A stretch of DNA of 64,000 nucleotides. Origin: a virus. Positions 8,676 through 38,493 of this stretch are shown here, piece by piece. The DNA is taken from the IMG/VR virus record IMGVR_UViG_3300045971_000149, positions 64,001 through 128,000 of that record. One strand, 5' to 3'. The first letter of the stretch is position 1. Each line of letters begins with the position of its first letter. The position numbers and the translations under genes were made by a program. The notes below the pieces were generated by a model, which saw only the letters and a program-made list of their open reading frames with translations, was not told where the DNA came from and did no database searches.

Positions 8676-10037
8676 ATGAGCATACGGCATCAACACATTA
8701 TCCCGATTATCAACCAAATTAGCCCGACGTTCTGTTTAGCTAAATGGCACCATACCACAATATATCTACAGACTGGGGAAACACATAGCTGTTATCACCC
8801 ACGTCCACATAGCATCCCCATTGCAGAGTTAACTAACAATCCCGGCGCATTACATAATACGTTACAAAAGAAAGCTGAAAGAGCTGAAATGGTCGCGGGT
8901 AATAAACCACAAGGGTGTAACTATTGCTGGAATATAGAAGCAATGGGCGACGAGTATATAAGTGATCGTAAAGAGCGAAATGCAAGCATTTATACTCCTG
9001 AGCGATTTGAAGCAATACAGCAATCACCGATGGCCGACGTCAACCCGCAATATATTGAAATAAGTTTCGGTAATGAGTGTAACTTCAAGTGTGGGTATTG
9101 CCATCCAAAACATTCTAGTTCGTATCAAAAAGAGATAAAAGACTTTGGTCCTTATACTATGGTAAAGAATCATCGTAATGATATCAATTGGTTTACTACA
9201 TACGAAGAAGAGACTAACCCATATGTAGCTGCATGGTGGGCATGGTGGCCCGAAGTATCAAAGACATTAACTATACTTCGCATTACAGGGGGTGAGCCTT
9301 TACTGCAAGCATCTACTTGGCGTTTATTCGAAGAGTTGTCTGCAAACCCAATGCCCGACTTAGAACTTAATCTTAATAGCAACTTAGGAGTAAAGCCTGT
9401 ATTGGTGCAGCGCCTTATTGAAAAGGTAAACGCACTGGTAGCTGGTGGCAGGATAAAGAGCTTCAAGCTGTTTACTAGTCTCGATACCTGGGGTAAGAGG
9501 GCAGAGTATATCCGTACTGGCCTTGACCTAGATGTATGGGAACAAAACTTTAATGCATATATGACTCAAACTAATCTACCCATTACGTTTATGGTAACGT
9601 TTAACGCACTCACTGTGACTAGCTTTACTTCGCTATTAGAGAAGTTCTTAGAGTGGAGAACTCGTTACAACGGAACTGATCAAACAAAATGGCAACGTAT
9701 TAGATTTGATACTCCTTACCTTAAAGAGCCGTTGCAGTATGATATGAACATCTTGCCAAAGGAAGAGTTTATGCCCTACATGTATGCTACATTAAAATAC
9801 ATTGCTGATAACGTAGATGCTACAGATAGAACTAAGTTTAGTCAAGAAGAACATGATAAGTTTCTGCGAGTAGTCAAGTATATGGAAACAACTCATTACT
9901 CTGCAGAAAAACTAACAGAAGGACGATCTGACTTTTATAATTGGTTTACTGAATATGATCGTAGGCGTGATACTAACTTTGCAGAAACTTTCCCTGAGAT
10001 GATAGATTTTTATACAGTGTCGGCAAGGGAAATGTAA
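8676..10037 (+). CDS. radical SAM protein with N-terminal twitch-like domain
   Basis: CNFKCGYC, ITGGEPLL, N-terminal FCLAKW...SCYH...CNYCW. Confidence 0.9.
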   Translation: MSIRHQHIIPIINQISPTFCLAKWHHTTIYLQTGETHSCYHPRPHSIPIAELTNNPGALHNTLQKKAERAEMVAGNKPQGCNYCWNIEAMGDEYISDRKERNASIYTPERFEAIQQSPMADVNPQYIEISFGNECNFKCGYCHPKHSSSYQKEIKDFGPYTMVKNHRNDINWFTTYEEETNPYVAAWWAWWPEVSKTLTILRITGGEPLLQASTWRLFEELSANPMPDLELNLNSNLGVKPVLVQRLIEKVNALVAGGRIKSFKLFTSLDTWGKRAEYIRTGLDLDVWEQNFNAYMTQTNLPITFMVTFNALTVTSFTSLLEKFLEWRTRYNGTDQTKWQRIRFDTPYLKEPLQYDMNILPKEEFMPYMYATLKYIADNVDATDRTKFSQEEHDKFLRVVKYMETTHYSAEKLTEGRSDFYNWFTEYDRRRDTNFAETFPEMIDFYTVSAREM

Positions 10038-11332
10038 TGCATTTTGTATTTGAAAAATTATCACCCGAAGCATCTGAAAATTTTATTAACTGTCCAGATG
10101 TAAACAACTCGGGCATTCGCCGATTTACTCCTAGCCCGGTAATAAATGCAGTGATTCACAATAGTACCCGTAACATATCATATTCGTCCCAAGTGCCCGA
10201 CGAAAAATATATAATTGCATCGGGAGTTGCACATAGCCCCGGAGGATGGTGTGGCCCCGATAGCGAAAATAACGGATTTGATAAAAGGGATCCTAATAAG
10301 CAATCAGTGTTTGCCCATCTAAGTGAACAATATCTTAAAGATTTGCAAACAGGTAAAGCATGGTTACTTCTTGATCAATCACACGAAGGACATCATGTGT
10401 TGTGGCTGTGGGATTGGTTTCATAATAACTGTAATACATATAACATTAATCCTAGCCAAATTATATATGTCACTGGAAACCTAAACAGCAGTTCTGATTA
10501 TGCTGATTGGTTAACTTCGAAAAATTTATCAACCGGGATGTTAGTTATACCAGCAACACATTTTGAATCATTTATGTGCTGGATGGCATCTATTGATAAA
10601 ATTGTTAATGATCTATCAGCTAAATCTCACATAGAGTACAAAACTAACAACTTAGAAAAGATTAAGGTTTATAATGCATTACAAAAAAGACCCCGGGTAC
10701 ATCGAATTTGGTTATTTAAATCTCTAGTTGAAAACAATTTATTAGATAGTGGTATCAATAGTATGAATTCGTTTTCTTACCTGCATAGTTATTTTGAAGG
10801 TCGACATATGAATGTCAATGAATATAATACTATAGCAAACTTACTACCTATGTTATCCCCTACTGATAATAACTTAGCAAAATTTTCTAATACCGTAAGT
10901 GGACACTATATTACAGATTTTAATGAACAACATATGTTAAATTCATGGGTAAGTGTAATTAGTGAAGCATCATTTGGTGATTCAGAAAGAACTTGCTTTA
11001 TTAGCGAAAAAACATTTAAGACTATCGCATGCTATCACCCTTTTATTATATTCGGAAACAAAGGATCGTTAGCGCATCTTCGTAAGTTAGGTTATAAAAC
11101 GTTTAGTCCGTTTATCGATGAAACTTATGATTCTTTACCTACATGGGAACGAATTTCGGCAATCATTGTAGAGATTAACAAAATAAAAAATATGACATCT
11201 TATGAAAAATTAGAGTGGTATAAAGGAATGACAGAAATAGTAACACACAATTATAATGTGTTAAAGAATAATTCAGCATCTTATGCTAACTTGCACTATA
11301 CACAACTAGCATCTCACTGTAATATTAGTTAA
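10037..11332 (+). CDS. putative glycosyltransferase (GT10-like C-terminus)
   Basis: SVISE...FISEKTFKTIA..HPFIIFG...LRKLGYKTF. Confidence 0.55.
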   Translation: MHFVFEKLSPEASENFINCPDVNNSGIRRFTPSPVINAVIHNSTRNISYSSQVPDEKYIIASGVAHSPGGWCGPDSENNGFDKRDPNKQSVFAHLSEQYLKDLQTGKAWLLLDQSHEGHHVLWLWDWFHNNCNTYNINPSQIIYVTGNLNSSSDYADWLTSKNLSTGMLVIPATHFESFMCWMASIDKIVNDLSAKSHIEYKTNNLEKIKVYNALQKRPRVHRIWLFKSLVENNLLDSGINSMNSFSYLHSYFEGRHMNVNEYNTIANLLPMLSPTDNNLAKFSNTVSGHYITDFNEQHMLNSWVSVISEASFGDSERTCFISEKTFKTIACYHPFIIFGNKGSLAHLRKLGYKTFSPFIDETYDSLPTWERISAIIVEINKIKNMTSYEKLEWYKGMTEIVTHNYNVLKNNSASYANLHYTQLASHCNIS

Positions 11333-11856
11333 TGAAAATACTATGTACCGGGAATCCTGTTGCAGGTATTGCTAAGGAGTTACAAAGTCTATATCCAGAT
11401 ACTTGCTTTATATCCAGGACAAACGGGTATGATTTATCAACGATTGAAGGCATAGATAAGTTTAAAGAGTTGTTACCTAATTACGATGTGTTTATTAATC
11501 ATTCTCAATTACTACCTGGTACTCAACAACTATTACTACAACATGCCTATGCAATATGGAATTCAGGGCATGTTATTAATATCGGTAGTGTCTTAGAGTT
11601 TAAACAGTGGGAATGGATAGAACCCGATGCTGCTGAAGACAAACGGCAATTGCGAGAGCGAAGTTTAGCCTTGGGAAATGAGTTATTCAAAACTACTCAT
11701 CTTATAATTGGTGGAATACGAGATAATGATATTTGTCGAATGCATCCAGTACATGTTGCTAAAGCAATAATGTGGATACTAGAAAATGAAGTTCATATCC
11801 CGATGCTTTACATTGATAAACTATCTAACGAAGTATTATCTAAAAGGAAATATTAG
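11332..11856 (+). CDS. short-chain dehydrogenase/reductase-like protein
   Basis: ILCTG..AGIAKEL, DVFINHS, VINIGS. Confidence 0.7.
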   Translation: MKILCTGNPVAGIAKELQSLYPDTCFISRTNGYDLSTIEGIDKFKELLPNYDVFINHSQLLPGTQQLLLQHAYAIWNSGHVINIGSVLEFKQWEWIEPDAAEDKRQLRERSLALGNELFKTTHLIIGGIRDNDICRMHPVHVAKAIMWILENEVHIPMLYIDKLSNEVLSKRKY

Positions 11857-12436
11857 TTGCAAGTATCTCAGGTACTTTACTTACTGGTACTTTAAATATT
11901 AAATGTGCTCGATCAGTACTTCCGAGATTATTTGTACTATGCATTAACGATGTGTTTACTAAGTATATTTTTCCAGGAGTTAATACAAACCGTTCGTTAT
12001 CGAATATAAAATAACTTTGATCGTTTCCGGTAATAGGGATATGTATTTTAAAGTACTCTTCATCACAGTATATTTCTTTATCGATGTGAGCATCTATAAT
12101 AGATCCAGGATTATGCACTGTAATACTTGCCTGCCTAGCACATGGAAATGCGTTAATGCATTTTTCTGCAAATCCGAATAATAATTTAGTAGGAGTATCA
12201 AACTGGTTATTATCTGTAGGACTCGGCGGCACCCATTCTGGGGGTAAATGCAGTGGAGCACACGGAATTGTAATATCTGCTAATTTAGTGTGGATCGCCC
12301 AAGCATGCCCGGTAAATTGTGATTCGAAGTTTGGCACCCATTTTAAATCTTGATGCTGCTCTTTGATTATTGCATAGTAATCGAGTAACTCTTGAAAAGA
12401 AAATGTAACATTATCGAGTTCTTTTATTGTGAACAT
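11840..12436 (-). CDS. AspH-like 2OG-Fe(II) oxygenase
   Basis: PGSIIDAHID...IHIPI...NTSLMHSTNN...RAHLIF. Confidence 0.85.
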   Translation of the reverse strand: MFTIKELDNVTFSFQELLDYYAIIKEQHQDLKWVPNFESQFTGHAWAIHTKLADITIPCAPLHLPPEWVPPSPTDNNQFDTPTKLLFGFAEKCINAFPCARQASITVHNPGSIIDAHIDKEIYCDEEYFKIHIPITGNDQSYFIFDNERFVLTPGKIYLVNTSLMHSTNNLGSTDRAHLIFKVPVSKVPEILATNISF

Positions 12437-12447
12437 ATTATCTGCGA

Positions 12448-13353
12448 CTATCTAACTGAAATAAAATCTGGTGATAAATGGGTATCGGATGTTTTTATCA
12501 TACTATGCTCGGCTACCCAATTATACGGTTTATGTTTATCTAATGCAGTGCCTATACAAATAAATGATTGTGGTATTAGGGTGTCAACTGTATATTCCCC
12601 ATACTTTAAATGTAATATATCTTCAATGGGTTTTATTTTTTCACTGAAATAATTAAAGCTGTTACAAAATGCTAATTGATATCCTCGATCCAATGCAGTG
12701 AGTCCTATTCTAGAATATACTCTCCCCATTTGAAAATAGTATAATACATCGAATTGTTTAGGAGGAATACTAATTATCAACGGAGCATTCATTTGCGGAA
12801 TATGTATGTTACCGGGCTTACCCTCTCCTTCCCAATAAATCGCTAACGAATACATTATTTCACGCACTTTAGGATCTGTAATTACAACCTTATGTCCGGA
12901 ATTATCTATTAGAAAAGTATCAATTAACTCATTAATAATTTTCAAAGTTGTAACGTCTACAGGGGTATCGGTGTTAAATGAACGTTGACTATGCTTTAGT
13001 GTTTCGTATTTGTCTAAGCTACCAGAAAACGTAAAATTATTGTTGCTAACTCTTACAAATATTTCCTTGTCAGATGTTGTAACTGAATACGGTATATTAT
13101 GTTCATTTAGAAAATATTCAATACTACCCACTGAAAGTCCTGCATGTTCCCATTCTTCGAATCTATTAACATGTTCTGGCATAGATGATTCATTTTCACG
13201 CCTTGGATCTATTTTAGTGTATTGATTAGTTGGTGTAAAGATTAATACAATATTGGTGTCATCAACTTCTTGTAGACTACATTGAAAAAATGTACGGCCA
13301 CATCGAACTGGAGAAATAAACACCAGATGTTTGAGAATATTTAAAAGTTCCAT
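12448..13353 (-). CDS. nitroreductase-like protein
   Basis: QRSFN and C-terminal MG...LTALDRGYQLAFC...ICIG. Confidence 0.55.
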   Translation of the reverse strand: MELLNILKHLVFISPVRCGRTFFQCSLQEVDDTNIVLIFTPTNQYTKIDPRRENESSMPEHVNRFEEWEHAGLSVGSIEYFLNEHNIPYSVTTSDKEIFVRVSNNNFTFSGSLDKYETLKHSQRSFNTDTPVDVTTLKIINELIDTFLIDNSGHKVVITDPKVREIMYSLAIYWEGEGKPGNIHIPQMNAPLIISIPPKQFDVLYYFQMGRVYSRIGLTALDRGYQLAFCNSFNYFSEKIKPIEDILHLKYGEYTVDTLIPQSFICIGTALDKHKPYNWVAEHSMIKTSDTHLSPDFISVR

Positions 13354-13367
13354 ATTAACTCCAAATT

Positions 13368-14225
13368 TTATTTAAATGCAATATCAGGCAATACAAATGT
13401 TGCCTCTTCTAACTGATGTCCTGGCTCTCTATATTCAGTTAATATTAAATGAGCTCTTGGCTTATCCCAAGGATTTATAACAGTATGCAACATTTTTGGT
13501 ATCAACATCCATGCTTCACCGACAGGCATGTGCATCTTGTAGTACTTGTCTGTATCACCTTCATCTCTACATAAAAATTGCACATCTGGACGAGTAGTAA
13601 TAGGAACATGGTACCTGAGATATAAGTTTGCATCATTGTGTAAGTTATATCGTCTGCAGGGATTAACCCATAATATTCTAATTCCGCCGACCCATTTCCG
13701 TTGAAAGTTAGTTTCGTGCCATTCAATTAACGAATCAATTATTGTTTTTATATACAATCCATCTAATTCTTCTAAAAATTCTGTAGCATCTCCGGGGAAG
13801 TAACCTTGTTCAGTTTGCCAAGAGATGTGCCCTCTATTTTTTAAATATCTATCTTTTCCAGTAAGCCCAGGCTTATAGCTTAAATTTAAATCAAAGAAGA
13901 TAGGAGTAGTTGGATTGCCTAACGATTTCCATTTTTCAGAAAACCACTGGTTAGCTTCTACTTCCATGTCTTGATAACTGGCATATCCTAATCTGTGTGC
14001 TAGCTCAGTAAAGCTATTTAATAATTGCTCTTCGTCAATATCTACCATTATGGGATGATTGTCGGGAATTGAGTTAACTTCTTCTGCGGCATTTAAAATG
14101 TTATCAACATTGTACCCGTCGGGTATGTGATGCGGCCTAGTTAAGCTAGGCGCAGCATCTTTAATTGTATTATAATTTTTTGAATTGTTGTTGTAGTCTA
14201 ACGGTAAAAACTTAAAATGTTTCAT
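13368..14225 (-). CDS. AspH-like 2OG-Fe(II) oxygenase
   Basis: YNLHND..LRYHVPI...HTVIN...RAHLI. Confidence 0.8.
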   Translation of the reverse strand: MKHFKFLPLDYNNNSKNYNTIKDAAPSLTRPHHIPDGYNVDNILNAAEEVNSIPDNHPIMVDIDEEQLLNSFTELAHRLGYASYQDMEVEANQWFSEKWKSLGNPTTPIFFDLNLSYKPGLTGKDRYLKNRGHISWQTEQGYFPGDATEFLEELDGLYIKTIIDSLIEWHETNFQRKWVGGIRILWVNPCRRYNLHNDANLYLRYHVPITTRPDVQFLCRDEGDTDKYYKMHMPVGEAWMLIPKMLHTVINPWDKPRAHLILTEYREPGHQLEEATFVLPDIAFK

Positions 14226-14277
14226 TATATATTCTCTTAAATTTATTTAGTGCGTACAATTACTGATAAGTAGCATT

Positions 14278-14934
14278 ATGAACACTACAAAAGATTACTA
14301 TGTTTCTGATGCTAAGTTTTTAGAATTGGATATAGATGTGCCGTATGTTGAAATGTTGAAAGAAGCACAACAGCTAACACATAGATTTACTTCACACAGA
14401 TACGGCGAAGACCAACATAACGGTTGGAAAAGTCTGGCACTATACGGCATTGAAGAAGATAAACATGAGAATTGGAATATATACGGGTATACATCGGCAT
14501 TAGATGCTGCTAAAGATTTTAAGTGGACTGCGGCAGCATATGAATGCCCTACTATTATGAATTTCTTAATAAACAAGTTTCCATCTAAGAGATATGGCAG
14601 AGTTAGACTTATGCTATTAGAAGCCGGCGGGCATATTGCACCCCATAGTGATACCAGTCACCGCTTGTTGGAAAATATTAATATACCTCTTAGTAATCCT
14701 AAAGAATGTGTGTGGCACTGGGGTGATGGTACACACTTAGATATGAAACCCGGTACTCCTTATGCGATGAATATTAGTTATGTGCACAGTATAGAAAATA
14801 ACAGCACAGAAGACCGATTACATTTAATTGTGGCAAGGCACGACTCTACCCTAGCGTGGAAACAATTAATTGAACGTGCCGCTGCCAAAGCCGGTGTAAC
14901 CGGTCATTACATCACACACGAAATTGCAGTTTAA
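14278..14934 (+). CDS. AspH-like 2OG-Fe(II) oxygenase
   Basis: RVRLMLLEAGGHIAPHSD...HSIEN...RLHLIV. Confidence 0.9.
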   Translation: MNTTKDYYVSDAKFLELDIDVPYVEMLKEAQQLTHRFTSHRYGEDQHNGWKSLALYGIEEDKHENWNIYGYTSALDAAKDFKWTAAAYECPTIMNFLINKFPSKRYGRVRLMLLEAGGHIAPHSDTSHRLLENINIPLSNPKECVWHWGDGTHLDMKPGTPYAMNISYVHSIENNSTEDRLHLIVARHDSTLAWKQLIERAAAKAGVTGHYITHEIAV

Positions 14935-16355
14935 CCTAGTGGCCTAATACTAACCCAATCTTTAGAATGCCATGGCGCTTTTTTTAATTCGTTTATATCA
15001 GTAAGCTCGAAGTCTTTTGCAAATCCAGTAAGCGTTTGCCTTCGAGTTAGATATCCATCAGACGCTCGCGAAGTCATAATTATTGTAATATTAGGATCGA
15101 CGTTTTGTATCTTAGTAATTAGTTTATTCTCACAAGATATTCTATACTTCAAGCTCTGCGTAGCTACATACGGGCTGTGAGTAAACACATCGCTTAAATT
15201 TATCAGAGTTTTCTTACCAGGAACTATCCAGTCTAGATTATAACTTGCCATATAATCTATTAAAATATACTCAAATTTAAGCTGTTTAATCTTCGCCCAG
15301 GTTTCTTTCCAATTGGGATGCATAACAATAAATTTATCCCACTCGTCCCTTGTCCAATTAACATAAGCATTAATATCTTTGCTAAAATTATTTGGAGTAA
15401 TAGGACGATGCTTATCGTAAAAGTCTGAATAGTTTTCTCCGTCCCACTCTTCGACCATTGCCTTCATGAATTGCAATGTACTATGATTTATATCAGTGAA
15501 TATAACTTTAGTATCGGGGGTGGTAGTTATTCTATCTAAGTAGGTAATCCAAAATACACCAATTCCAACAGTAATATATTGTTCAACTGGCCCTTCAAAT
15601 GGAATACTTTCCTTAAACTGGTCGGAGTTCCACGAAGGAATAAAGTTATTACAAAAGAATTGATTATAGTATATATCGGATACTTGTCTTAAGAATACAT
15701 GATCGTATTCGTAGTATAGATATTTCTTACTTTCTCTAATGTCCGGGCCTAAGTCAACTACTACTTTGTTATTCTTTAACGCGGTGGAAATTAAATTCCA
15801 TCCATGCATTTTCATATTATAAGTCTTTTCAATTGTGCCTGGTTTAATCCAAGCTGCAACTTCGTGATCTCCGTATAAACATTCTTCGCTTCGGATAGGT
15901 TCAATTTGAGTATGTACAATCTCTTCCGGTTGACCTAAAGAAGGGCATCCTAGTTCCACATAATCTGCAAGACGAACTATGTAAAACTGATGATGTAATT
16001 CGTAATATGCATTTTGATAATACGACTTTTCATTTCTTTGCAGTACATGCCCCGCAACAAAGAATTCTTGTTGGCAAAGCTTTTCTATAGCAGGAAATAG
16101 TTTATCGTTTAAACCTAAAGACATCCCCATAGCAATAATTACTGCATGAGAATATCCTTCAGTGCTAACTTCCTTTAACAGTGCATCTTCATCTTTGCCG
16201 ATGAATATATCATATCCTTGCATGTTGAATCGGTGTATTAGAAAATCTGATATATTGATCGATACTTCTGTTGCCCAACTACTTTGATATAAGTCTCTGT
16301 TATCTACAATGCAGCAAACAATAGGATTCTTGTTTTGTTTAATAAAATTTACCAT
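14931..16355 (-). CDS. large hypothetical protein (possible transferase domains)
   Basis: 474 aa ORF; VIFTDIN segment resembles a SAM-binding strand. Confidence 0.6.
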   Translation of the reverse strand: MVNFIKQNKNPIVCCIVDNRDLYQSSWATEVSINISDFLIHRFNMQGYDIFIGKDEDALLKEVSTEGYSHAVIIAMGMSLGLNDKLFPAIEKLCQQEFFVAGHVLQRNEKSYYQNAYYELHHQFYIVRLADYVELGCPSLGQPEEIVHTQIEPIRSEECLYGDHEVAAWIKPGTIEKTYNMKMHGWNLISTALKNNKVVVDLGPDIRESKKYLYYEYDHVFLRQVSDIYYNQFFCNNFIPSWNSDQFKESIPFEGPVEQYITVGIGVFWITYLDRITTTPDTKVIFTDINHSTLQFMKAMVEEWDGENYSDFYDKHRPITPNNFSKDINAYVNWTRDEWDKFIVMHPNWKETWAKIKQLKFEYILIDYMASYNLDWIVPGKKTLINLSDVFTHSPYVATQSLKYRISCENKLITKIQNVDPNITIIMTSRASDGYLTRRQTLTGFAKDFELTDINELKKAPWHSKDWVSIRPLG

Positions 16356-16915
16356 TTAGGGTATTGCTCCAAGTCTTTTAAAAATATTTCAGGAAAAAAT
16401 TGCCATACAGTTTGCATCGTACCTCTATACTGTACTTCTGCTGCAATTTTCATTATGCCTTTCTTTGCAAGTGCAGGACCAAACGTTCTATGCACTTTGC
16501 GTTGTGTTCCTACGGCATTTTCATTTGATGTAATATATAACGATGCGCCTTTAGGTGCCCATTCTATACATGCAGGTATTAAGAATTGCGCAGTAGGATT
16601 CTGATGGTGTGTTATAACACTAATAGTTCGTAATGCACTTCCGTACACTCCTTCTAACTTATCAGTGAATATGCATGTTCTTGCTGCAATACGATAACTG
16701 TTAGTCCCCATAACATCGTCAAAAGAATGTGCTGCCACACTACCTACAACAGTATCGTTAAAGTATAGCAACCACGTTTGCTTTTCTCGTTCGTTATTAA
16801 AACAGTCAACAAGCATATGTTTGCTAGAGTTATTATCAAAACCCCGTGCAGCAGCAGATGAATAAAACTCTGTAAGATCTAATTCGTTACTAAACGGTAC
16901 TACTTTAAATGACAT
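16349..16915 (-). CDS. GNAT-like acyltransferase
   Basis: WLLYFNDTVVGSVAAH...YRIAARTC pattern. Confidence 0.5.
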   Translation of the reverse strand: MSFKVVPFSNELDLTEFYSSAAARGFDNNSSKHMLVDCFNNEREKQTWLLYFNDTVVGSVAAHSFDDVMGTNSYRIAARTCIFTDKLEGVYGSALRTISVITHHQNPTAQFLIPACIEWAPKGASLYITSNENAVGTQRKVHRTFGPALAKKGIMKIAAEVQYRGTMQTVWQFFPEIFLKDLEQYPKW

Positions 16916-17603: not shown

Positions 17604-17641
17604 ACTCTAATTTAGCAATAAATACCTACATAATAAACATT

Positions 17642-19990: not shown

Positions 19991-19991
19991 T

Positions 19992-23452: not shown

Positions 23453-23495
23453 TATGATTATATTTATATGCTATGTTAACTCCTATAAATAAAAA

Positions 23496-29663: not shown

Positions 29664-29664
29664 A

Positions 29665-29760
29665 CTATTTGTAAATGAACGGGTCTCGTTTGCGTAGTTC
29701 TTTTAGTCTTTTCTTAAACAAGAAATAATTTTTAATTCTTAGTATTAATCTTTTTATCAT
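29665..29760 (-). CDS. 31-aa cationic peptide
   Basis: MIKRLILRIKNYFLFKKRLKELRKRDPFIYK*; ATGA overlap with upstream gene; stop ends 1 nt before the next ATG. Confidence 0.7.
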   Translation of the reverse strand: MIKRLILRIKNYFLFKKRLKELRKRDPFIYK

Positions 29761-30353: not shown

Positions 30354-31332
30354 TTATTGGTATCACTTTTCTTTTTGGTATTTTACTATCAGCTGAACTA
30401 ACGCATGTGGGAGTGATACATTTTGCAGGAGCATTAAAAATAGTAAACCCGTTATCTAACGTTCCTAACATAGTATCGTGACAACTGTAACCACGTTTCA
30501 CTTCGTTAGACTTAATTATAACACTTTGATGACCACTATTGCAAGTCCAATCTGTAAACTTATTAAACCCGAATGAATTGAATCGTTCAGCTTGGTCAAG
30601 CAAGTATTCTGTATTATGGTTATCATATAACGCTATCTGATATATAGCTGCTCCGTTACTCCGCTGTGGGAATCCGGTTTGCATGAGTTTAATCATATCA
30701 TCAGTGTATCCGCTTACTATGTTAGAAGCAGTTAAGTCGCTTTGCGGTTTAAGTGTAACATTAATACCTTGCCTATTAAAATTAACTAATCGATCATACA
30801 GCTCGTAAAACTTTCCGGGTACCATAACTTGATTTACAGTAACATGTACATTATCGTCTATTAACTGTAACAGTTTGTCACTGAACTGATCTTCTTTTGA
30901 AAACTCGTCGTGATAGCTGGCAGTTATGCTTCTACGTTGTAACATACTTGTAGAATCTGCCCAATTTCTCCACCAATTCTTACTAGGTGATAAGTTAGTA
31001 GTCATATGAATACTTTGATACGGTGTTTGAATACCATCATCAAGGTGCTTCGTTAACTCTAGAAGATGTTTATAAGCAGTAGGTTCACCACCACTAAAAC
31101 TCCAATGAAATTGGTTAAAACCATTAGATCTAGCTTGCGACTTAATTTCGTCTATTGTGTGTTTATATAGTTCTAACGGCTGGTAATCTAGAGTATCTGA
31201 TCTAGCATACGGCCAACAATAACTGCATTTATAATTACAAAATCGACCTAAAATCCAACTCACAGAAAACAATTGAGAATCGAGCATAGTCCGTTGACCA
31301 AAAACTTTTATAGTTTTCCATGGGATGTTCAT
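30343..31332 (-). CDS. radical SAM protein with C-terminal SPASM/twitch domain
   Basis: CNYKCSYC; SGGEPT; CNSG...C...CITPTC. Confidence 0.9.
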   Translation of the reverse strand: MNIPWKTIKVFGQRTMLDSQLFSVSWILGRFCNYKCSYCWPYARSDTLDYQPLELYKHTIDEIKSQARSNGFNQFHWSFSGGEPTAYKHLLELTKHLDDGIQTPYQSIHMTTNLSPSKNWWRNWADSTSMLQRRSITASYHDEFSKEDQFSDKLLQLIDDNVHVTVNQVMVPGKFYELYDRLVNFNRQGINVTLKPQSDLTASNIVSGYTDDMIKLMQTGFPQRSNGAAIYQIALYDNHNTEYLLDQAERFNSFGFNKFTDWTCNSGHQSVIIKSNEVKRGYSCHDTMLGTLDNGFTIFNAPAKCITPTCVSSADSKIPKRKVIPINAT

Positions 31333-31396: not shown

Positions 31397-32140
31397 ATGA
31401 TGCCATTTCTACATACCAAATTCCTTACGTACACAGAAGCAAACGTAATTCAGTTTAGCAATACTGTAGCGGTAAAACGCTTACCTACTACTGCTAGATT
31501 AGATGTTACTGCTACTGATGTAACTATGTGGACAAATGAAGTTGATCCTGTAGGGTTTTCTCAAGTTAGTTGCTATAATGCATATCTATTTGAAAATACA
31601 GGAACATATCATTTAATAAGTGTTGATAATACATTTAACATTTACTCGGATTTATATAAAGAAAGCATTAACAGTAATGCATATAAAATGGCAACTCCTG
31701 TATCTTCTGATCAAACAGTAATCGGAGATACAGGAAACAACCCGCTATTTCCAAATACTACTCCGTTATATTACAGTAAGTATTCTATGCCTGATGGGTA
31801 CGGCCCTCCGTTTATGCTAGATTATATGACCGGGGCACTTACAGATGTTGCAGCATTACTGAAACAATTTATTAATGAATGGACAGTGATGTTTCAAGTT
31901 CTAAAACAATACGGCCACCCATTTCCTGTAACAATCGAAGTAGTTGATAGATTGCGAACAGGTAGTAATGAATATACTCATTATAAATTTACTCACCCTT
32001 TTAAGTTAGGAGTAAATGATGGAATTGATGCTGCGATTACAAAGGTAGACAGATTATTGCATGGAATAAATTCCGACCCTACAATAATATTAGATATATC
32101 AACTTATGCGAGACAACAATGGTTACCACTGAAAATTTAA
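31397..32140 (+). CDS. hypothetical protein
   Basis: 247 aa ORF; TAAATA 7 nt upstream. Confidence 0.7.
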   Translation: MMPFLHTKFLTYTEANVIQFSNTVAVKRLPTTARLDVTATDVTMWTNEVDPVGFSQVSCYNAYLFENTGTYHLISVDNTFNIYSDLYKESINSNAYKMATPVSSDQTVIGDTGNNPLFPNTTPLYYSKYSMPDGYGPPFMLDYMTGALTDVAALLKQFINEWTVMFQVLKQYGHPFPVTIEVVDRLRTGSNEYTHYKFTHPFKLGVNDGIDAAITKVDRLLHGINSDPTIILDISTYARQQWLPLKI

Positions 32141-32340
32141 ATTGCATGGTAGTACTCTATTTAAATGATGCAAAAGTTGCTAGGGTCCCTTGTAATTTTT
32201 TGCAACATTTAATGCTTAATGATGTTTTAACTTATTTCGGACATCTTAATATCGAAACACTTAAATTCTACACAGATCTTAGTGTAGAAATGAACGGTGT
32301 GACAATTTTTAAGAAACCGTTAACTCAACTTATCGGTTAA
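32119..32340 (+). CDS. hypothetical protein
   Basis: fills the gap between genes; start uncertain. Confidence 0.5.
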   Translation: MVTTENLNCMVVLYLNDAKVARVPCNFLQHLMLNDVLTYFGHLNIETLKFYTDLSVEMNGVTIFKKPLTQLIG

Positions 32341-32998
32341 AGTAATTTTTCAACCAATCAAAATCGTTGATCAATTTAATTGCTTCAGTATTACCCGAGT
32401 TAAGTGTACCGTATTTTCTCCCTAATACTGCGCCATCTATAGAATATTCGCTGTAGTCGCCGTTAGCAATAGTACACCATGTATCGAGGCGCTGTTCGGT
32501 TTCGGTATTAACTTGCCTGTCTATACTTTTACTGCTAAGTTTAACGCATTCTCTAAATGCTGACTTCCAAGTATTAAATGGGTCAGTATTAAATCGAGTT
32601 ATACTTGCAACCTGATCAATTGCCATGAAGTGCTTACTGATCGAAGTTGTCATATCGATGCTATTAACATCCAATGCTGCTGTAGCAATACGGGGCAACA
32701 GTTTAACTCCACCGTTACCGTATGCTAATCCGTTAAGAGGATTAACTGCTCTATATACACAAACGATATCTTCTAGATCTAATTCAGGAGTTTGAAAATT
32801 AAAGTCCTCTGCTATTTCAGAGTCACCATCTACTACCCAAAATCTAGTTGTAAAGCAGTTGTTAGCCGCATTGATATGAGCATTATGTATTCCTTTGACT
32901 CCGTGTATTCTACGAGCAAACGGAAACCGATTCTTTAATCTTTCCCAATTAGCATCGGCATTAGATTCGTTATACGATATAAATGCAATATCAAACAT
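32330..32998 (-). CDS. GT-A fold glycosyltransferase-like protein
   Basis: FISYNE..A..NW, WVVDGD (DxD), YGNGGVKL. Confidence 0.7.
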   Translation of the reverse strand: MFDIAFISYNESNADANWERLKNRFPFARRIHGVKGIHNAHINAANNCFTTRFWVVDGDSEIAEDFNFQTPELDLEDIVCVYRAVNPLNGLAYGNGGVKLLPRIATAALDVNSIDMTTSISKHFMAIDQVASITRFNTDPFNTWKSAFRECVKLSSKSIDRQVNTETEQRLDTWCTIANGDYSEYSIDGAVLGRKYGTLNSGNTEAIKLINDFDWLKNYFNR

Positions 32999-33890
32999 GT
33001 TTACTCATTACCCACAAAATTTGTTCTTTGGTTTGATTATATTGATCTGCAAAGGTGTCGACAATAAACTCGCTAGTTACTGGATCAAGCAACACTGTTT
33101 TTATACCTAACTCTTGCTCGATTAGATTACCGTATTCTGTTATAGCAGACGTAACATCGAGAGAAGAAACTTCTTTCCAAACATCTTTCAGTTTGTCAAA
33201 GTCTCGTACATCAAGGTGATTCCACTCAGTGCAGTTTGTTTTATAACAGCCGTGCCTTGCTCCGAGGATTGCCCATAGTCCATTGTCAACATGAGATCCA
33301 ATATTCATCCAGGCCTTTAGTCTATGCAGGTTATGCCAGTGTAGTTTTTTAATGTCCTTTTCTTTAGGAAGCAGGCCGTTAACTAAACTCATCTTAACAC
33401 CTTCTCTAAATCCCGCACGCCATGCTTGATAAGGACTTGCATTAGGATAGGTAACTGAGAAGCTATCCATCATCGGAATGTATCCTGCTTCCCAACAAAA
33501 GTCTACAGCATTTTTATCTACTGCTGCTGCTTCGTGAGTTCGCATGTTTAATACAAAGTCCTTGCGCCATAACTTTAAACTGCCGTTACCGTACCGTAAG
33601 CCGTTAAGCACATTAAGTCCTGGCCAGCTACATGCATCGGTAGAATCTGGAAGTTCTACCACTTGGTCGAAGAATCTTGTATCTACAATGTTATCTGCAT
33701 CGACTGTAATAAACCAATCAGTTTCGCTAAGATTAGCGGCTGCTTTATGGCATTCGTCACTGCCTTTAACGCCATGCACTCGTTTAGCCCACATACATTT
33801 ATCAACAAGGTCTGCCCAATTCTGTTCTGCGTTGGGCTCGTCATAGCTCATAAAAATGCAATCAAGTTCTGTGATGTTTAATTTTATCAT
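32991..33890 (-). CDS. GT-A fold glycosyltransferase-like protein (paralog of previous)
   Basis: FMSYDEPNA, ITVDAD, YGNGSLKL, WRAGFREGVK. Confidence 0.7.
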   Translation of the reverse strand: MIKLNITELDCIFMSYDEPNAEQNWADLVDKCMWAKRVHGVKGSDECHKAAANLSETDWFITVDADNIVDTRFFDQVVELPDSTDACSWPGLNVLNGLRYGNGSLKLWRKDFVLNMRTHEAAAVDKNAVDFCWEAGYIPMMDSFSVTYPNASPYQAWRAGFREGVKMSLVNGLLPKEKDIKKLHWHNLHRLKAWMNIGSHVDNGLWAILGARHGCYKTNCTEWNHLDVRDFDKLKDVWKEVSSLDVTSAITEYGNLIEQELGIKTVLLDPVTSEFIVDTFADQYNQTKEQILWVMSKHV

Positions 33891-34435
33891 AATTTTGATC
33901 CCCACACACTAATCTTCTCAAGTGTGTCTAATTCTAATTCTAGTGTTTTATCTATGCTCAATTGGTAGATATCGATTTTGTATTTTTTCAATAGCGCAGT
34001 TGGGTCGTTGTACTTAGTAACATAAATTATACTATCGCCGTACCCTGCAGATATAGTTGTCTTGAAGTAATATTTAGACTGGGTAGACAATCTAGATGAA
34101 TCAAATAATAATGTTAACTTATCGGAATGTTCAAACTCGATGTTAAGTTGATCAATGAATACTGTTCTATAATTTAAATCTCTAACTACATTGTTTGCTC
34201 TAGCGGATTTATTAATAGTTGTAGATAATTTAGGGATAGGCTCAGCGTATCCAGTATTTGTTATACTAACAAAATACTCATGTAGCCGAAGAGGCCCTGA
34301 AATAAATTCAAGTGCAGTAGATTCCTGAATACGTGCTTCGCATTTTTTGTGTGGAATATCGTTATGAGGTGATCCGCCTATACTGTATATTTCAAAAGTA
34401 TCAACATCATATAGTAGATAGAAATCAGTGTCCAT
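33887..34435 (-). CDS. hypothetical protein
   Basis: 182 aa, translationally coupled. Confidence 0.7.
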   Translation of the reverse strand: MDTDFYLLYDVDTFEIYSIGGSPHNDIPHKKCEARIQESTALEFISGPLRLHEYFVSITNTGYAEPIPKLSTTINKSARANNVVRDLNYRTVFIDQLNIEFEHSDKLTLLFDSSRLSTQSKYYFKTTISAGYGDSIIYVTKYNDPTALLKKYKIDIYQLSIDKTLELELDTLEKISVWGSKL

Positions 34436-35246
34436 ATAAAGCCTCTAATGTTTTTATAGTAGACTCGTGTATAATATCTTTGTTTACATAATGAAGCAGC
34501 TCGTGTTGTTTCCATACTCCGAGGCTAACTTGTCCTGTGATGTCCATAGAAAATCTAAGTCTATCGGTCCAATCAATAACGTGGTCACTCCACCCTTGTA
34601 CCATGCCCTTCATATGTGTGATGCTAGGTGTGTCATGCGATACTGCTAAGTCAACGATATCTAACATACTTACTGCTAATGCAAATGCTTCATCGGTAGG
34701 AATCGAGGTCATATGCTCTGCCGAAATTAAATCTTTCAAAAAATATTGCGGATTGTTAGTGACTAATTTTACAGTATCAAAGAACTCTTTAGAAATTGCA
34801 GCATCTTTTTTAAAGTAAGTCCATGCATTATAAACATCAGGTAACTTATTATCTTCGAATACTTTGCGATAATAACCAAACTTGATCTTCTTGCCTTCAA
34901 ATGTTTTGGCCGATGATGCGACTGCTATATCTCGGTCTTTTACCATATCCCAATAATGCGACATATCTTTTAAAAATAGCATATCCGAATCGAGTAATAC
35001 AGTTTCATCGTACACTGCATAATCAAGAGCACGTGATCTAGCATCCATACCTAAGGGCCCGTTGTACGTGATTACGTTATCAAATATCGGGTATAACTCT
35101 ATTACTTTAGCAGGGTTGTTTGTAACTATTGCTACTTTATTATACTCATCCGGTTGTGTTATTTTTATAGATAACGCACACGCATATGCTAATCTAGTGT
35201 AGTCAATAGAATCAGTGTCTAATGCAAATAACAAATATCCTCTCAT
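34425..35246 (-). CDS. GT8-like glycosyltransferase
   Basis: YTRLAYACALSIK, YDETVLLDSDML, THMK. Confidence 0.7.
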   Translation of the reverse strand: MRGYLLFALDTDSIDYTRLAYACALSIKITQPDEYNKVAIVTNNPAKVIELYPIFDNVITYNGPLGMDARSRALDYAVYDETVLLDSDMLFLKDMSHYWDMVKDRDIAVASSAKTFEGKKIKFGYYRKVFEDNKLPDVYNAWTYFKKDAAISKEFFDTVKLVTNNPQYFLKDLISAEHMTSIPTDEAFALAVSMLDIVDLAVSHDTPSITHMKGMVQGWSDHVIDWTDRLRFSMDITGQVSLGVWKQHELLHYVNKDIIHESTIKTLEALYGH

Positions 35247-36079
35247 TTGCTTAGTTCCAATAGTTTATCTAAATTTGCCAATAAACTTCGTTTATTCATA
35301 ATATGAACATCCTGACCTTGACATTTTGTTAAAGCATAATCATCACCGCTTAATCTCTTTAATAAGAACACAAGTGATCCGTCGTTGTCTACTTTTAGTA
35401 TTTCGTCAGTATCTCTATAAAACAAAGGCACTGGTAGTTCGCCGTGCCACATATCTTCGGGAAAACCGTTCATTGTAAAACATGCAATGCTGAATGCAAA
35501 GTCGTTTCTAAACTGGCGACTATCAAATTCGTACAATTGAGAAAAGTAAGAATATTCTTCTTTGATGTAATTAACTAAGTTAAACAGTATCTCAACTTCG
35601 GGAGTTTTGCTAAACATAATGTTAGTGGCCCATAGTTGGCGAATTGAATTGGGACTTATTCTATAATCAGTGTAGCTGTGTGTTTCCTGTTGTAATTCCA
35701 TCATCCCCGGAGTGATTAGAAAATCATGAGGGTCGTCCCAAAACTTACCAAGGGTATCACTAAACACAAGAAAGTCGCTGTCGATTACTAATGTCCTATC
35801 ATATGGGGTAATTGAATATGCTAGCGATCGAGAACCATTAAAGAACGGCAACTTCTCCCCGGCTAATACTCTTTGATTAGTGCTATCATTAGTAATCTCT
35901 ATAAGTTGATCAAACGGCAATACTTTAAACTTTGATTTAACATTATTAATAGTAGTGATGTCGGCAACTAACGATACAGGTACATTTAAATGTTTAACAA
36001 CAAGAGAAGCAGCTAATACAGCTTGTGATCCGTAGTCCATTATCCCGTCGTGGGCAAAAATTAAACATCCACAATTCAT
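35243..36079 (-). CDS. GT8-like glycosyltransferase
   Basis: TPYDRTLVIDSDFL, FRNDFAFSIA, HIMNK. Confidence 0.7.
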   Translation of the reverse strand: MNCGCLIFAHDGIMDYGSQAVLAASLVVKHLNVPVSLVADITTINNVKSKFKVLPFDQLIEITNDSTNQRVLAGEKLPFFNGSRSLAYSITPYDRTLVIDSDFLVFSDTLGKFWDDPHDFLITPGMMELQQETHSYTDYRISPNSIRQLWATNIMFSKTPEVEILFNLVNYIKEEYSYFSQLYEFDSRQFRNDFAFSIACFTMNGFPEDMWHGELPVPLFYRDTDEILKVDNDGSLVFLLKRLSGDDYALTKCQGQDVHIMNKRSLLANLDKLLELSK

Positions 36080-36426
36080 AAATTAACAATTGCTTTGATT
36101 GTTCGTTTCTTTTTTAAGGCATCAATATCCAATGTGTATTGGTTGATTACAGTAAAATATGTATTTGTAATCTGTTCTCTAAATTTAACAAGATCATCAA
36201 CTCGAATTGGATTTTGAGTATCATCAAGCAAGATTACTGAGTTGGTACCTTCGACTGGTGTTATTAAATTTAAGAAAACAATTAAATTTCTATCGATGTA
36301 AAATCTCCCACCATTGTATCCAATAGTGAGATCTGATTTAAGTTTTTCTTGTAACCGTAATTTTTCTAAATATAGAGTTCGTCTAAACTTAGAGATTTCG
36401 AGAGCTTTTTCTAAACGAGTATCCAC
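36076..36426 (-). CDS. hypothetical protein
   Basis: 116 aa, AGGA RBS. Confidence 0.75.
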   Translation of the reverse strand: MDTRLEKALEISKFRRTLYLEKLRLQEKLKSDLTIGYNGGRFYIDRNLIVFLNLITPVEGTNSVILLDDTQNPIRVDDLVKFREQITNTYFTVINQYTLDIDALKKKRTIKAIVNL

Positions 36427-36473
36427 AATATTTTTCCTATTGTGTTAATTATACACGAACTTAATATGAAAGA

Positions 36474-37334
36474 TCAAGTAAATGCGGTATTTACAATGTT
36501 AGAAGTTGGAAGTAATCCAGTAAATGCGCCTGTTGCAGCCAATCGGTACACATTCATTTGAACACCGGGACTAACATTATCTGGGCCACCGCTGATGCCG
36601 ACGTGCCCATCTTGTAACACTAGCATAAATCTGCATCCTTGATCACTAGTAATCTGTAATGAAAGAGTCAAATTATTTGAAGTATATGCACCACCACCTG
36701 TATTTGAATACAGTGTTAACAAATTGGATGGGGATTTGTTGCCTCTAGCATTCCAAGCATTAGTAAAATCAGCATAGGTAACTGTATAATTTACCGCGGC
36801 TAACTCAGTATGCCATGCAACGTCTTGAGCAGTATTTTGATTAGGCCCTGCTCCAACTATCTTAAATGTGCCACCTTGGTTAAAGTAAGTGTATAAGTTA
36901 CTAGTGGTACCAAAATCATTAGTAGTTTGACCAATATTGGTTCCTGCCCAATTTCCGGTACCAGTAATCTGTTCAACCAATGTTTGAGTTCGCTGATTAG
37001 CTGCTATGTTAAGGCGATTAGTTAGTAGAGAATTAGCAATTCCATCTAATAACACTAAATTAGTATACGAAATAGTGCCGCTAACTGTGAATAATGAAGG
37101 CCAATTAACTCCGTTTTGATGAAGGTAACATGTGTTAACATCATTTACCAGGTGTTGCCATTGTAACGCAGTAATAACATTAGTTGGGTTAACTAGTGAT
37201 GATGTTAAAATTTGTTCATAGCCGTAGCCTGCTGCGTATCCGCCGTATCCGCTACCGAACCCCAGTACTCCGTCGACCTTAACTTGAACAGCATTATAGT
37301 CTGCTCCGTAAATAATTTGTCCAATGCCTGCCAT
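36474..37334 (-). CDS. probable virion structural protein
   Basis: Gly/Thr/Asn-rich, GYGYEQ...ITALQW, YFNQGG; GGAG RBS; TAAATA upstream. Confidence 0.6.
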   Translation of the reverse strand: MAGIGQIIYGADYNAVQVKVDGVLGFGSGYGGYAAGYGYEQILTSSLVNPTNVITALQWQHLVNDVNTCYLHQNGVNWPSLFTVSGTISYTNLVLLDGIANSLLTNRLNIAANQRTQTLVEQITGTGNWAGTNIGQTTNDFGTTSNLYTYFNQGGTFKIVGAGPNQNTAQDVAWHTELAAVNYTVTYADFTNAWNARGNKSPSNLLTLYSNTGGGAYTSNNLTLSLQITSDQGCRFMLVLQDGHVGISGGPDNVSPGVQMNVYRLAATGAFTGLLPTSNIVNTAFT

Positions 37335-37411
37335 GTTTCAAACTCCATTGATTAATTTTGATACTGTATTTATATGACTATAAATACCTGTATAAAAATA
37401 AAGGATTCGAG

Positions 37412-37831: not shown

Positions 37832-37837
37832 AAACTT

Positions 37838-38284
37838 ATGGCATGCCGGATATTAATTATGGGCCTTCCGGGCTCGGGTAAAACCACACTTGCAAACTTG
37901 CTATCCAAAAGGTTGCAGGCAGATTGGTTTAATGCTGACGAAGTACGAAAGCAAAATGAAGATTGGGATTTTAGCATTACTGGTAGAATTAGACAAAGTG
38001 AACGTATGCGAGCATTATGTGATGCAAGCACAAAAGAGTTCGCTATTGCTGATTTTGTGTGTCCGTTGCCTGAAATGCGAGAAAACTTTTCAGCACATTG
38101 GACAATATGGCTTGACACAATACAAGAAAGCCGTTATACTGATACTAACAAAGCTTTTAACCCACCTAGTAGCTATGACTTTCGGCTTTCAACCCGAGAT
38201 GCAGAAATGTGGGCGTTATTCATTTCAGAATACATATTAGCTATAACAGCAGAAAGATGCGTGATTCGAACATCCGAAGTTTAG
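37838..38284 (+). CDS. cysC: adenylylsulfate kinase-like protein
   Basis: GLPGSGKTTLA, NADEVR, FSITGRIRQ, DFVCP. Confidence 0.75.
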   Translation: MACRILIMGLPGSGKTTLANLLSKRLQADWFNADEVRKQNEDWDFSITGRIRQSERMRALCDASTKEFAIADFVCPLPEMRENFSAHWTIWLDTIQESRYTDTNKAFNPPSSYDFRLSTRDAEMWALFISEYILAITAERCVIRTSEV

Positions 38285-38493
38285 CTAAAGCAGTTAGTTG
38301 GCGAGTAACTGGTACCGTTGATACTTTTATTATCAGTTGGTTCATTACAGGGCAACCGTTATTAGCTACTGGAATTGCACTAACAGAAATTATAACAAAA
38401 GTATTTTTGTTTTGGGTTCACGAACGAGCATGGAATAAAATAAATTGGGGAAGAGCAGATGTTGTACCAACCGTTAAAAACGCAAACGATTAA
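38257..38493 (+). CDS. DUF2061-like small membrane protein
   Basis: RSLAKAVSWR..GT...HERAWNKI.WG. Confidence 0.85.
   Translation: MRDSNIRSLAKAVSWRVTGTVDTFIISWFITGQPLLATGIALTEIITKVFLFWVHERAWNKINWGRADVVPTVKNAND

Follow-up and report, generated by a model that had tools for sequence, protein, structure and literature searches.

A low-GC island of separable tailoring-enzyme modules, dense in radical SAM genes, on the contig of an uncultured virus

Comparable phage gene islands are already in print (PMC7029224, PMC5332604, PMC2938197), and the description of the island treated here as undescribed, given in a first-pass annotation of the same DNA, was thus too strong. The island is an accessory region of about 30 kb with low GC content, dense in tailoring enzymes and made up of separable modules. 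It lies in a window (the whole 64,000-nucleotide stretch that was analysed) comprising bases 64001-128000 of the 157,925-bp IMG/VR virus contig IMGVR_UViG_3300045971_000149, which CheckV estimates to be 44% complete; all contig-wide negative results below refer to this contig at this completeness. Genes are named by their start coordinate in the window. Among the related contigs, L001-L017, L039-L046 and L049 are uncultured viral relatives, and L018-L022 are contigs from metagenome-assembled genomes (MAGs) that carry cellular homologs.

Pelagimyophages carry cassettes of radical S-adenosylmethionine (SAM) genes in a hypervariable host-recognition island (Zaragoza-Solas et al. 2020, PMC7029224). 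The host recognition cluster of pelagimyophages and cyanomyophages is, like the present island, a large non-syntenic region beside tail-fibre genes (PMC7029224), but the phage studied here is a jumbo myovirus with a tail sheath near those of Atu_ph07 and PA5oct, and not a T4-like pelagimyophage. Also, the glycosyltransferases of that cluster were read as modifiers of the host O-chain and its radical SAM genes were given no function (PMC7029224), whereas here the enzymes are soluble, late-type promoter motifs precede them and a virion-like gene comes first. Nishimura et al. 2017 (PMC5332604) described an environmental T4-like virus whose genome has 12 radical SAM genes together with genes for Fe-S assembly. 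The mass occurrence of radical SAM genes in that uncultured marine myovirus, linked there to phage IscU and A-type carriers (ATC), is the feature in common, and may be compared with the IscU/IscA genes of our relative L049; however, that study treats Fe-S supply and not the role of the radical SAM enzymes, and neither IscU nor IscA could be found on the present contig.

Operons combining a hydroxylase, a sulfotransferase and genes for 3'-phosphoadenosine 5'-phosphosulfate (PAPS) were predicted by Iyer et al. 2010 (PMC2938197) to hydroxylate and then sulfate co-encoded tail-collar or collagen-like proteins. These operons, together with the dioxygenase/halogenase arrays of Syn9, share with the island multiple non-identical AspH/2-oxoglutarate (2OG) dioxygenases, a sulfotransferase, a PAPS-pathway kinase, an acyltransferase-like gene and fibre-like proteins. 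They differ in having no block of eight radical SAM genes and no operon of GT-A glycosyltransferases, and the prediction is itself putative (PMC2938197). In place of their PAPS synthetase, a short APS-kinase-like protein (APS, adenosine 5'-phosphosulfate) is encoded here, and no ATP sulfurylase was found on the contig.

Further parallels concern individual enzymes. Three radical SAM proteins of the island (8676, 24190 and 27317) share with NCBIfam family NF033640 (N_Twi_rSAM) an N-terminal Cys cluster, the CxxxCxxC motif and a GGEPL motif. We know of no characterised member of this family, and membership gives no substrate. Twitch-domain radical SAM enzymes such as BtrN, which oxidises an aminocyclitol, and MoaA reportedly combine an auxiliary [4Fe-4S] cluster with the SAM cluster. 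In BtrN and MoaA, however, the twitch domain is C-terminal, whereas it is N-terminal here, and the similarity to MoaA is far below cut-offs. PBCV-1 A064R, a soluble viral GT-A enzyme that decorates structural proteins in the cytoplasm, provides a parallel for the glycosyltransferases, and a Foldseek search with 32991 gave A64R as the best match. Glycosylation of capsids and tails by virus-encoded enzymes is also known from mycobacteriophages. Unlike the present island, the chlorovirus and mycobacteriophage glycosylation systems are without radical SAM, AspH and sulfation modules.

Origin and layout of the island

Judged from its genes, the contig derives from an uncultured jumbo myovirus, because a tail sheath gene (1118 aa) located elsewhere on it shows 42% identity to the sheaths of jumbo phages Atu_ph07 and PA5oct, and a relative of gene 36474 was found on contigs of 339-346 kb. 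The nearest proteins to the fibre-like protein encoded at 47561-49888 are from Limnohabitans, Methylophilales and Pelagibacter phages. No cultured phage matched the island in a megablast search. The GC content of the island is about 0.35, and that of the flanks 0.40-0.48.

The island is organised in 11 transcription units on alternating strands. A TAAATA box is found 10-40 nt before the start codon at nine of the 11 operon heads, in agreement with the first-pass annotation, in which TAAATA late-type promoters had been placed at most unit starts. Four of these nine heads have the exact sequence TATAAATA, within two divergent intergenic regions; exact copies lie at 23461-23468 (- strand) ahead of the 22781-led operon, at 23484-23491 ahead of 23496, and at 37367-37374 (- strand) ahead of the 36474-led glycosyltransferase operon. 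Since the count over the whole window shows no enrichment (8 observed, 9.7 expected), only the placement of this sequence at operon heads is informative. Contig-wide, the same box also precedes the genes for the tail sheath, fibres and virion proteins, while sigma70-like boxes (TTGAC-N17-TAnnnT) are restricted to two other regions of the contig, with none in the island. The motif thus suggests that the island is transcribed from T4-type late promoters, and late expression is predicted on this basis.

Hydropathy analysis of the 41 island products revealed no polytopic membrane protein and, apart from the DUF2061 protein, no clear membrane protein, although a few enzymes show single marginal hydrophobic stretches. 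Accordingly, no flippase, polymerase or initiating transferase of a Wzx/Wzy- or ABC-type polysaccharide locus was seen among these 41 products by hydropathy, and Pfam scans combined with hydropathy identified no nonribosomal peptide synthetase (NRPS), polyketide synthase (PKS), protease or exporter in the island. The description of a dense tailoring-enzyme block with late-type promoter motifs and no NRPS/PKS scaffold therefore holds, on the evidence of family scans and motif placement.

Radical SAM core and its relatives

Eight radical SAM genes had been proposed, and motif and Pfam evidence agree on all of them: 8676, 17519/17642, 24190 and 25445 on the plus strand, and 26331, 27317, 28608 and 30343 on the minus strand. 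Each contains exactly one CxxxCxxC motif, and on the 157,925-bp contig PF04055 matches are confined to these eight genes, all within 22 kb (window 8676-31332). Six of the eight exceed the PF04055 gathering cut-off of 29.5 bits, both in hmmscan and in the genome scan, whereas 8676 (27.1 bits) and 28608 (27.0 bits) fall just under it; 8676 qualifies through NF033640. The genes form four groups, namely the NF033640 trio, the paralogs 25445, 26331 and 30343 (about 300-330 aa), 28608 on its own, and a radical SAM protein with a Zn ribbon. The trio matches NF033640 over its full length (model 1-398) with 317 bits (8676), 340 bits (24190) and 412 bits (27317), against a cut-off of 170 bits. In their alignment (A1), four invariant cysteines (C6, C24, C82 and C85) stand ahead of those of the SAM cluster (C138, C142 and C145), and residues 6-85 of the N-twitch protein match Pfam SPASM.

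The Zn-ribbon gene probably starts at ATG 17642, because an ATAAATA box lies 16 nt before this codon (17619-17625) and the homologs have 347 aa. The alternative GTG at 17519, which gives the longest open reading frame (ORF), overlaps the divergent gene by 85 nt and fits these homologs worse.

Within the core operon, 29757 is probably a SAM-binding Rossmann protein and a candidate SAM-dependent transferase. Its nearest Atlas families are Methyltransf_31, PCMT and NAS, so that the methyltransferase named in the first-pass annotation is retained as a lead from family neighbours. Profile searches against PDB sequences returned nothing useful for 29757, 18654 or 14931. No short conserved ORF that might encode the precursor of a ribosomally synthesised and post-translationally modified peptide (RiPP) was found beside the radical SAM core, and the contig has no match to PqqD/RRE (RiPP recognition element, PF05402) at E 1 or below.

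The core recurs in the same order, at 60-76% identity, in many uncultured viral contigs. Its conserved extent covers 30343, 29757, 28608, 27317 and 26331, then 23496, 24190 and 25445 (the last two at 59-76% identity in related viral contigs), and the block of hydroxylases, sulfotransferase and Zn-ribbon radical SAM gene. Synteny of the core operon was seen in L001-L017, L039, L044 and L049. More than 4,600 protein clusters in public metagenomes match the N-twitch radical SAM protein at E 1e-10 or below, and no close relative of it was found in cultured phages. In the 339-kb contig L049 the gene order is the same, and genes for NifU_N (IscU) and two Fe-S_biosyn (IscA-like) proteins lie directly upstream (L049:8530-9973), which fits working Fe-S enzymes.

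Homologs of five core genes (27317, 30343, 28608, 29757 and 32330), 26-48% identical, are also carried by MAG contigs that were assigned to Pseudobdellovibrionaceae and Bacteriovoracaceae (Bdellovibrionota) and to a gammaproteobacterium. In L021 the core lies amid three GT2 genes, an amine oxidase gene and a QueC/Asn-synthase-like gene. In L022 the core is surrounded by genes for a 2OG oxygenase, a nucleotide-diphospho-sugar transferase and an NDP-sugar (nucleoside diphosphate sugar) epimerase/dehydratase; beside the shared core, this gammaproteobacterial MAG contig also encodes a 785-aa protein in which a GFO/IDH/MocA sugar oxidoreductase is fused to a radical SAM domain (L022:2266-4623). As two of the three bacterial contexts are among GT2 or NDP-sugar genes, radical tailoring of a sugar appears more plausible than that of a protein itself. 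This changes the earlier proposal of radical tailoring of virion proteins, in which the protein itself had been taken as the substrate. Some core-bearing MAG contigs could be misbinned phage DNA; for L018, a cellular origin is indicated by the presence of a gene for a solute-binding protein.

Glycosyltransferase operon and accessory enzymes

Four of the five glycosyltransferase-like genes noted before find support, two through modelled folds and two as homologs of these, and the fifth (10037) could not be verified. AlphaFold (AF2) models were built on alignments of phage homologs. For 32991, Foldseek gave PBCV-1 A64R as top match (probability 1.0, E 1e-4), followed by RmlT and SunS, albeit with low TM-scores (0.3-0.44) and about 12% identity; comparison with B4GALNT1 gave a VIA Z of 10.6 and a root-mean-square deviation of 3.2 over 139 aligned residues. 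Its paralog 32330 has homologs in L018 and L020-L022. The model of 34425 matched UGGT, LARGE1, glycogenin, GlyE and LgtC (E 1.6e-8 to 1e-6), and 35243 is homologous to it (hhalign of alignments A2 and A3: 99%, E 4.6e-18). A DxD motif, present in all four proteins, is invariant at D69-x-D71 (A4), D86-x-D88 (A2) and D100-x-D102 (A3), and reads DSD in the 35243 and 34425 sets. The likeness to GT8 is one of fold only, as PF01501 (CAZy GT8) did not match the contig even up to E 10, and profile searches of the operon against PDB sequences gave only sub-threshold glycogenin matches (E 0.4-1). The hhalign comparison of the GT8-like set with the 32991 set was not significant. The best structural matches (A64R, acting on a capsid, UGGT, LARGE1, glycogenin, GlyE and XXYLT1) transfer sugars to proteins or to glycans bound to proteins.

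At the head of this operon a virion-like gene had been noted, and this is supported by the N-terminal 187 residues of 36474, which resemble PA5oct gp360 (tblastn E 8e-4). PA5oct gp360 is a virion protein detected by electrospray ionisation tandem mass spectrometry (ESI-MS/MS), and its gene lies beside baseplate and fibre genes. The 36474 product is rich in Gly, Thr and Asn and has 7% charged residues, comparable to the fibres. In L040-L044 its identity is 30-37%, against 50-68% for the enzymes, indicating faster divergence. A complex prediction with three copies of 36474 scored 0.00 and gave no verdict, hence no evidence either way. The fibre-like proteins at 45-53 kb contain 21-30% Ser plus Thr, as expected from their earlier description as Ser/Thr-rich. 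One of them (51010-52371) is 29% glycine, and a Collagen-repeat (PF01391) protein is encoded near the same block in L049 (L049:1-761); both recall the collagen-like proteins that Iyer et al. 2010 put forward as substrates.

L039-L046 and L049 keep the operon 36474, 36076, 35243, 34425, 33887, 32991, 32330, and the radical SAM core follows it wherever these contigs reach far enough. L039, L044 and L049 all show the order 32330, N-twitch radical SAM gene, 30343, 29757, 28608. In L042 a homolog of the epimerase gene 44243 directly adjoins the 36474-led operon, and in L043 one is found close to it. The suggested check of synteny in related phages thus had a positive outcome for both the radical SAM core and the glycosyltransferase operon. 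On the other hand, the kinase-DUF2061 gene pair adjoins the core directly in L001, L015 and L016, with no glycosyltransferase operon between, so that this operon looks inserted in the present window. One assembly line is therefore not established, as the modules also occur separately in relatives. In L017, genes for an AdoMet decarboxylase, a class III aminotransferase and a Trp-halogenase-family protein are located between the kinase-DUF2061 pair and the core (L017:3682-8849).

Nine 2OG-Fe(II)/AspH-like oxygenases had been counted, and eight could be supported, four by Pfam family and four by profile. Scores for PF05118 (cut-off 22.6 bits) were 61 bits for 14278, 32.4/22.9 bits for 11840 and 13368, and 18 bits, below the cut-off, for 22781; the HxD...H residues are invariant (H123, D125 and H170; alignment A9). 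The small paralogs 19499, 19992, 20477 and 21593 likewise have an invariant triad (H92, D94 and H144; alignment A8), and reach the AspH family by profile only, with a probability of 75% (E 2.5e-5) against the AspH set in hhalign and E 0.008 against the beta-hydroxylase structure 7v4f in the PDB.

The annotation as a sulfotransferase (21003) is confirmed by a PF03567 match above the cut-off, and the gene is kept at 66% identity in L015 and L016. The assignment of 37838 to CysC is tentative: the APS_kinase cut-off is passed over model positions 2-92 of 152, but the protein is short, and the generic P-loop models AAA_18 and AAA_33 score higher. A homolog in relatives is longer (263 aa, L015:7472-8263), with an additional C-terminal domain bearing the motif GRWQPWHDGH, which we take to be typical of HIGH-type nucleotidyltransferases; this domain is absent from 37838-38284 and from the rest of the window. 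The two kinase-like genes (16905 and 22104) are supported by a profile match (alignment A7) to the TTK kinase domain (E 3.5e-5, about 100 residues), in which the catalytic-loop Asp is not conserved. For 23496 the reading as a PP-loop ATPase stands, and the QueC-like PHROG match spans residues 169-233. QueC proper was rejected as an identity for this protein: no Pfam QueC match was obtained at E 0.01 or below, and no tRNA-guanine transglycosylase (TGT) was found on the contig.

Among the remaining predictions, the GCN5-related N-acetyltransferase (GNAT) 16349 is weak, being FeeM-like at E 0.015. The motif-based readings of 10037 as a glycosyltransferase and of 11332 as a short-chain dehydrogenase/reductase (SDR) could not be verified, nor could that of 12448 as nitroreductase-like, which has no Pfam or PHROG match. 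The genes 10037, 11332, 12448, 14931, 18654, 31397, 33887, 36076 and 37358 had no match in Pfam, PHROG or NCBIfam, and those that were scanned again stayed negative up to E 10. A scan of viral contigs with 10037 retrieved no homolog, and the left arm as a whole (8676-17603) is poorly conserved. Homologs of 14931 are present in L003 and L017. The highly conserved protein 18654 has no Pfam, PHROG or PDB match. The features are collected in the table. Elsewhere in the window, a tRNA gene (4353-4424, - strand, Rfam 72 bits) is located at the margin of the early promoter-cassette region, and downstream of the fibre module there is a Cas4/PD-(D/E)xK-type exonuclease gene (60401-61102, phrog_298, E 4.7e-49).

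Table. Features of the island and the nearby epimerase gene, with positions in the window
Feature	Position	Strand	Evidence
N-twitch radical SAM protein (NF033640), first gene of left arm	8676..10037	+	E 1.5e-94; CxxxCxxC at residue 135; TAAATA 12 nt upstream
Two genes, 431 aa and 174 aa (Rossmann-like N-terminus)	10037..11856	+	no Pfam/PHROG/NCBIfam match
Operon 13368 (AspH-like), 12448 (301 aa), 11840 (AspH-like)	11840..14225	-	PF05118; TAAATA upstream of 13368 and 12448
AspH-type Fe/2OG oxygenase	14278..14934	+	PF05118 E 1.5e-16, 61 bits
Operon 16905 (protein-kinase-like), 16349 (weak FeeM/GNAT-like), 14931 (474 aa)	14931..17603	-	
Zn-ribbon radical SAM protein (probable start)	17642..18694	+	PF23545 E 1.1e-14; PF04055 E 8.3e-13
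Protein of approximately 266-281 aa	18654..19499	+	66-69% identity in L001, L003, L015-L017
Three tandem small AspH-like cupin paralogs, 163-174 aa	19499..21001	+	paralogy E 1e-19 to 1e-27
Sulfotransferase	21003..21596	+	PF03567 E 2e-7, 31.8 bits (cut-off 22), model 4-139 of 252
Operon 22781 (AspH-like), 22104 (protein-kinase-like), 21593 (small cupin)	21593..23452	-	exact TATAAATA upstream
PP-loop ATPase, QueC-like	23496..24206	+	SGGxDS motif, C-terminal Cys cluster; PHROG QueC-like E 9e-6
N-twitch radical SAM protein 24190 and family-B radical SAM protein 25445	24190..26341	+	NF033640 E 2.1e-101 (24190); PF04055
Core operon: 30343 (radical SAM), 29757, 28608 (radical SAM), 27317 (N-twitch radical SAM), 26331 (radical SAM)	26331..31332	-	NF033640 E 3.6e-123 (27317)
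Single 247-aa gene	31397..32140	+	TAAATA upstream; no family match; poorly conserved
Two paralogous GT-A-fold glycosyltransferases (32991, 32330)	32330..33905	-	AF2 model pLDDT 83.5
182-aa conserved protein within glycosyltransferase operon	33887..34435	-	25-40% identity in L039-L045; no family match
Two homologous GT8/GT24-like retaining-type GT-A glycosyltransferases (35243, 34425)	34425..36079	-	34425 AF2 pLDDT 84.4
Head of glycosyltransferase operon: virion-like 36474 and 116-aa 36076	36076..37334	-	tblastn PA5oct gp360; exact TATAAATA upstream
Short APS-kinase-like P-loop kinase	37838..38284	+	148 aa; APS_kinase (PF01583) 25.2 bits (cut-off 21.1)
DUF2061 membrane protein	~38272-38493	+	DUF2061 E 1.4e-20
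NAD-dependent NDP-sugar epimerase/dehydratase	44243..45055	+	PF01370 E 1.1e-39; phrog_540; between island and fibres

Possible function of the island

We tentatively favour, at somewhat less than an even chance, a cytoplasmic pathway for the tailoring and transfer of sugars that acts late on virion proteins. This explanation is preferred because the enzymes are soluble, membrane and RiPP machinery is absent, an epimerase gene lies nearby, and the 36474 product is fibre-like, fast-diverging and similar to gp360. The pathway would start from host nucleotide sugars, with a contribution of the phage's own NDP-sugar epimerase 44243. The radical SAM core, consisting of the three N-twitch proteins, the five other radical SAM proteins, the putative SAM-binding Rossmann protein 29757 and the PP-loop ATPase 23496, would rebuild the sugar by radical chemistry, for instance by oxidation, epimerisation, deoxygenation, or C-C or C-methyl steps, and amidation or SAM-dependent transfer may contribute to the tailoring. 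AspH-type hydroxylases may place hydroxyls on the sugar or on Asp/Asn-type residues of the acceptor protein, and the kinase-like proteins, the APS-kinase-like enzyme and the sulfotransferase may add phosphate or sulfate. The four soluble GT-A enzymes would finally attach the products to phage structural proteins in the cytoplasm, with the 36474 product and the Ser/Thr-rich fibres at 45-53 kb as first candidate acceptors. A bolder version of this proposal, in which chemistry centred on the N-twitch radical SAM enzymes makes a new hydroxylated, sulfated or phosphorylated, and amidated sugar that is put on the phage's own fibre or virion proteins, is possible but doubtful.

Several observations weigh against a late sugar pathway for virion proteins. 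The match between 36474 and a virion protein is weak, nucleotidyltransferases of the same GT-A fold, such as IspD and MobA, tie within Z 1 for 32991, and no sugar nucleotidyltransferase was found on the contig. The radical SAM core occurs without the glycosyltransferase operon in many relatives, and in the stretches examined homologs of 32330-36474 are present in none of L001-L017. In L018, the neighbours of the core are genes for a solute-binding protein, a methyltransferase and a fatty-acid desaturase, with no sugar genes. Also, relatives of AspH include lipid hydroxylases such as LpxO, which acts on lipid A, and this equally favours another explanation, namely that the host envelope is remodelled, with lipopolysaccharide (LPS), O-antigen, capsule or lipid being altered to block superinfection or to change recognition. 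Such remodelling, which is the published view of islands of this kind in pelagimyophages and cyanophages (PMC7029224; PMC7824862), seems unlikely to us here. The bacterial homolog clusters, with their GT2 and NDP-sugar enzymes, do resemble polysaccharide loci, and L018 encodes a 660-aa AspH-like protein near the core in addition to the desaturase; however, neither a ligase nor the flippase, polymerase, initiating transferase or any other polytopic membrane protein that envelope synthesis would call for could be recognised by hydropathy, the promoters are of late and not early type, a virion-like gene heads the glycosyltransferase operon, and superinfection exclusion would be of little value late in a lytic cycle. 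Less probable again is the absence of any single pathway, the region being hypervariable and gathering independent modules (radical SAM core, hydroxylase/sulfation set, glycosyltransferase operon and left arm) that have only late promoters and proximity to the fibres in common. The 11 units on alternating strands, the poor conservation of the left arm, the direct contact of the kinase-DUF2061 pair with the core in three relatives and the replacement genes of L017 are all in line with such a gathering, but the same families are found together in many contigs and bacterial loci, the order from 32330 to 28608 recurs in three viral contigs, and the enzyme families would be chemically complementary.

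A free secondary metabolite or RiPP, tailored by radical SAM enzymes, hydroxylases, sulfo- and glycosyltransferases in the manner of proteusins or glycopeptides, is an improbable product, even though SPASM/twitch radical SAM proteins are commonly peptide maturases and weak NCBIfam matches to many such families were obtained. Peptide natural products typically involve halogenases and beta-hydroxylases of the AspH type (PMC2938197), L017 encodes a halogenase and an aminotransferase, and the RiPP S-glycosyltransferase SunS is among the fold matches of 32991. The lack of a precursor ORF and of an RRE match marks down the RiPP reading, and for a metabolite of either kind the missing NRPS/PKS, protease and exporter, as well as the sugar-oriented majority of the bacterial contexts, point elsewhere. 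Very improbable is the hypermodification of DNA or nucleotides against restriction, by a deazapurine-like or glycosylated base. A QueC-like PP-loop ATPase, radical SAM enzymes, a P-loop kinase and glycosyltransferases are families of known DNA modifications, and the radical SAM proteins show weak similarity to QueE, MoaA and viperin. Yet the similarity to QueE and viperin is limited to the SAM-cluster region and far under cut-offs, the GT-A matches are protein and glycan enzymes, and late-type promoters suit a modification at replication time poorly; the queuosine/deazaguanine reading is further marked down by the lack of a TGT/DpdA match and of a match at QueC level.

The number of N-twitch clusters in public metagenomes, together with the lack of a close relative in cultured phages, points to an abundant and conserved phage biochemistry without a known product. 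The five-gene core common to Bdellovibrionota MAG contigs provides a tractable entry for its enzymology. Should the island in fact alter the host surface or yield a metabolite, it would represent a new kind of auxiliary metabolism. If virion proteins are decorated as we tentatively propose, this would give NCBIfam NF033640 its first substrate class, and the product would matter for how aquatic jumbo phages recognise their hosts, keep their particles stable, and evade grazing or immunity. Should the bolder version with a new sugar be true, the virus would make a protein glycan without counterpart among known phage or cellular glycans, and Fe-S radical enzymes would be routinely at work in infected aerobic bacterioplankton.

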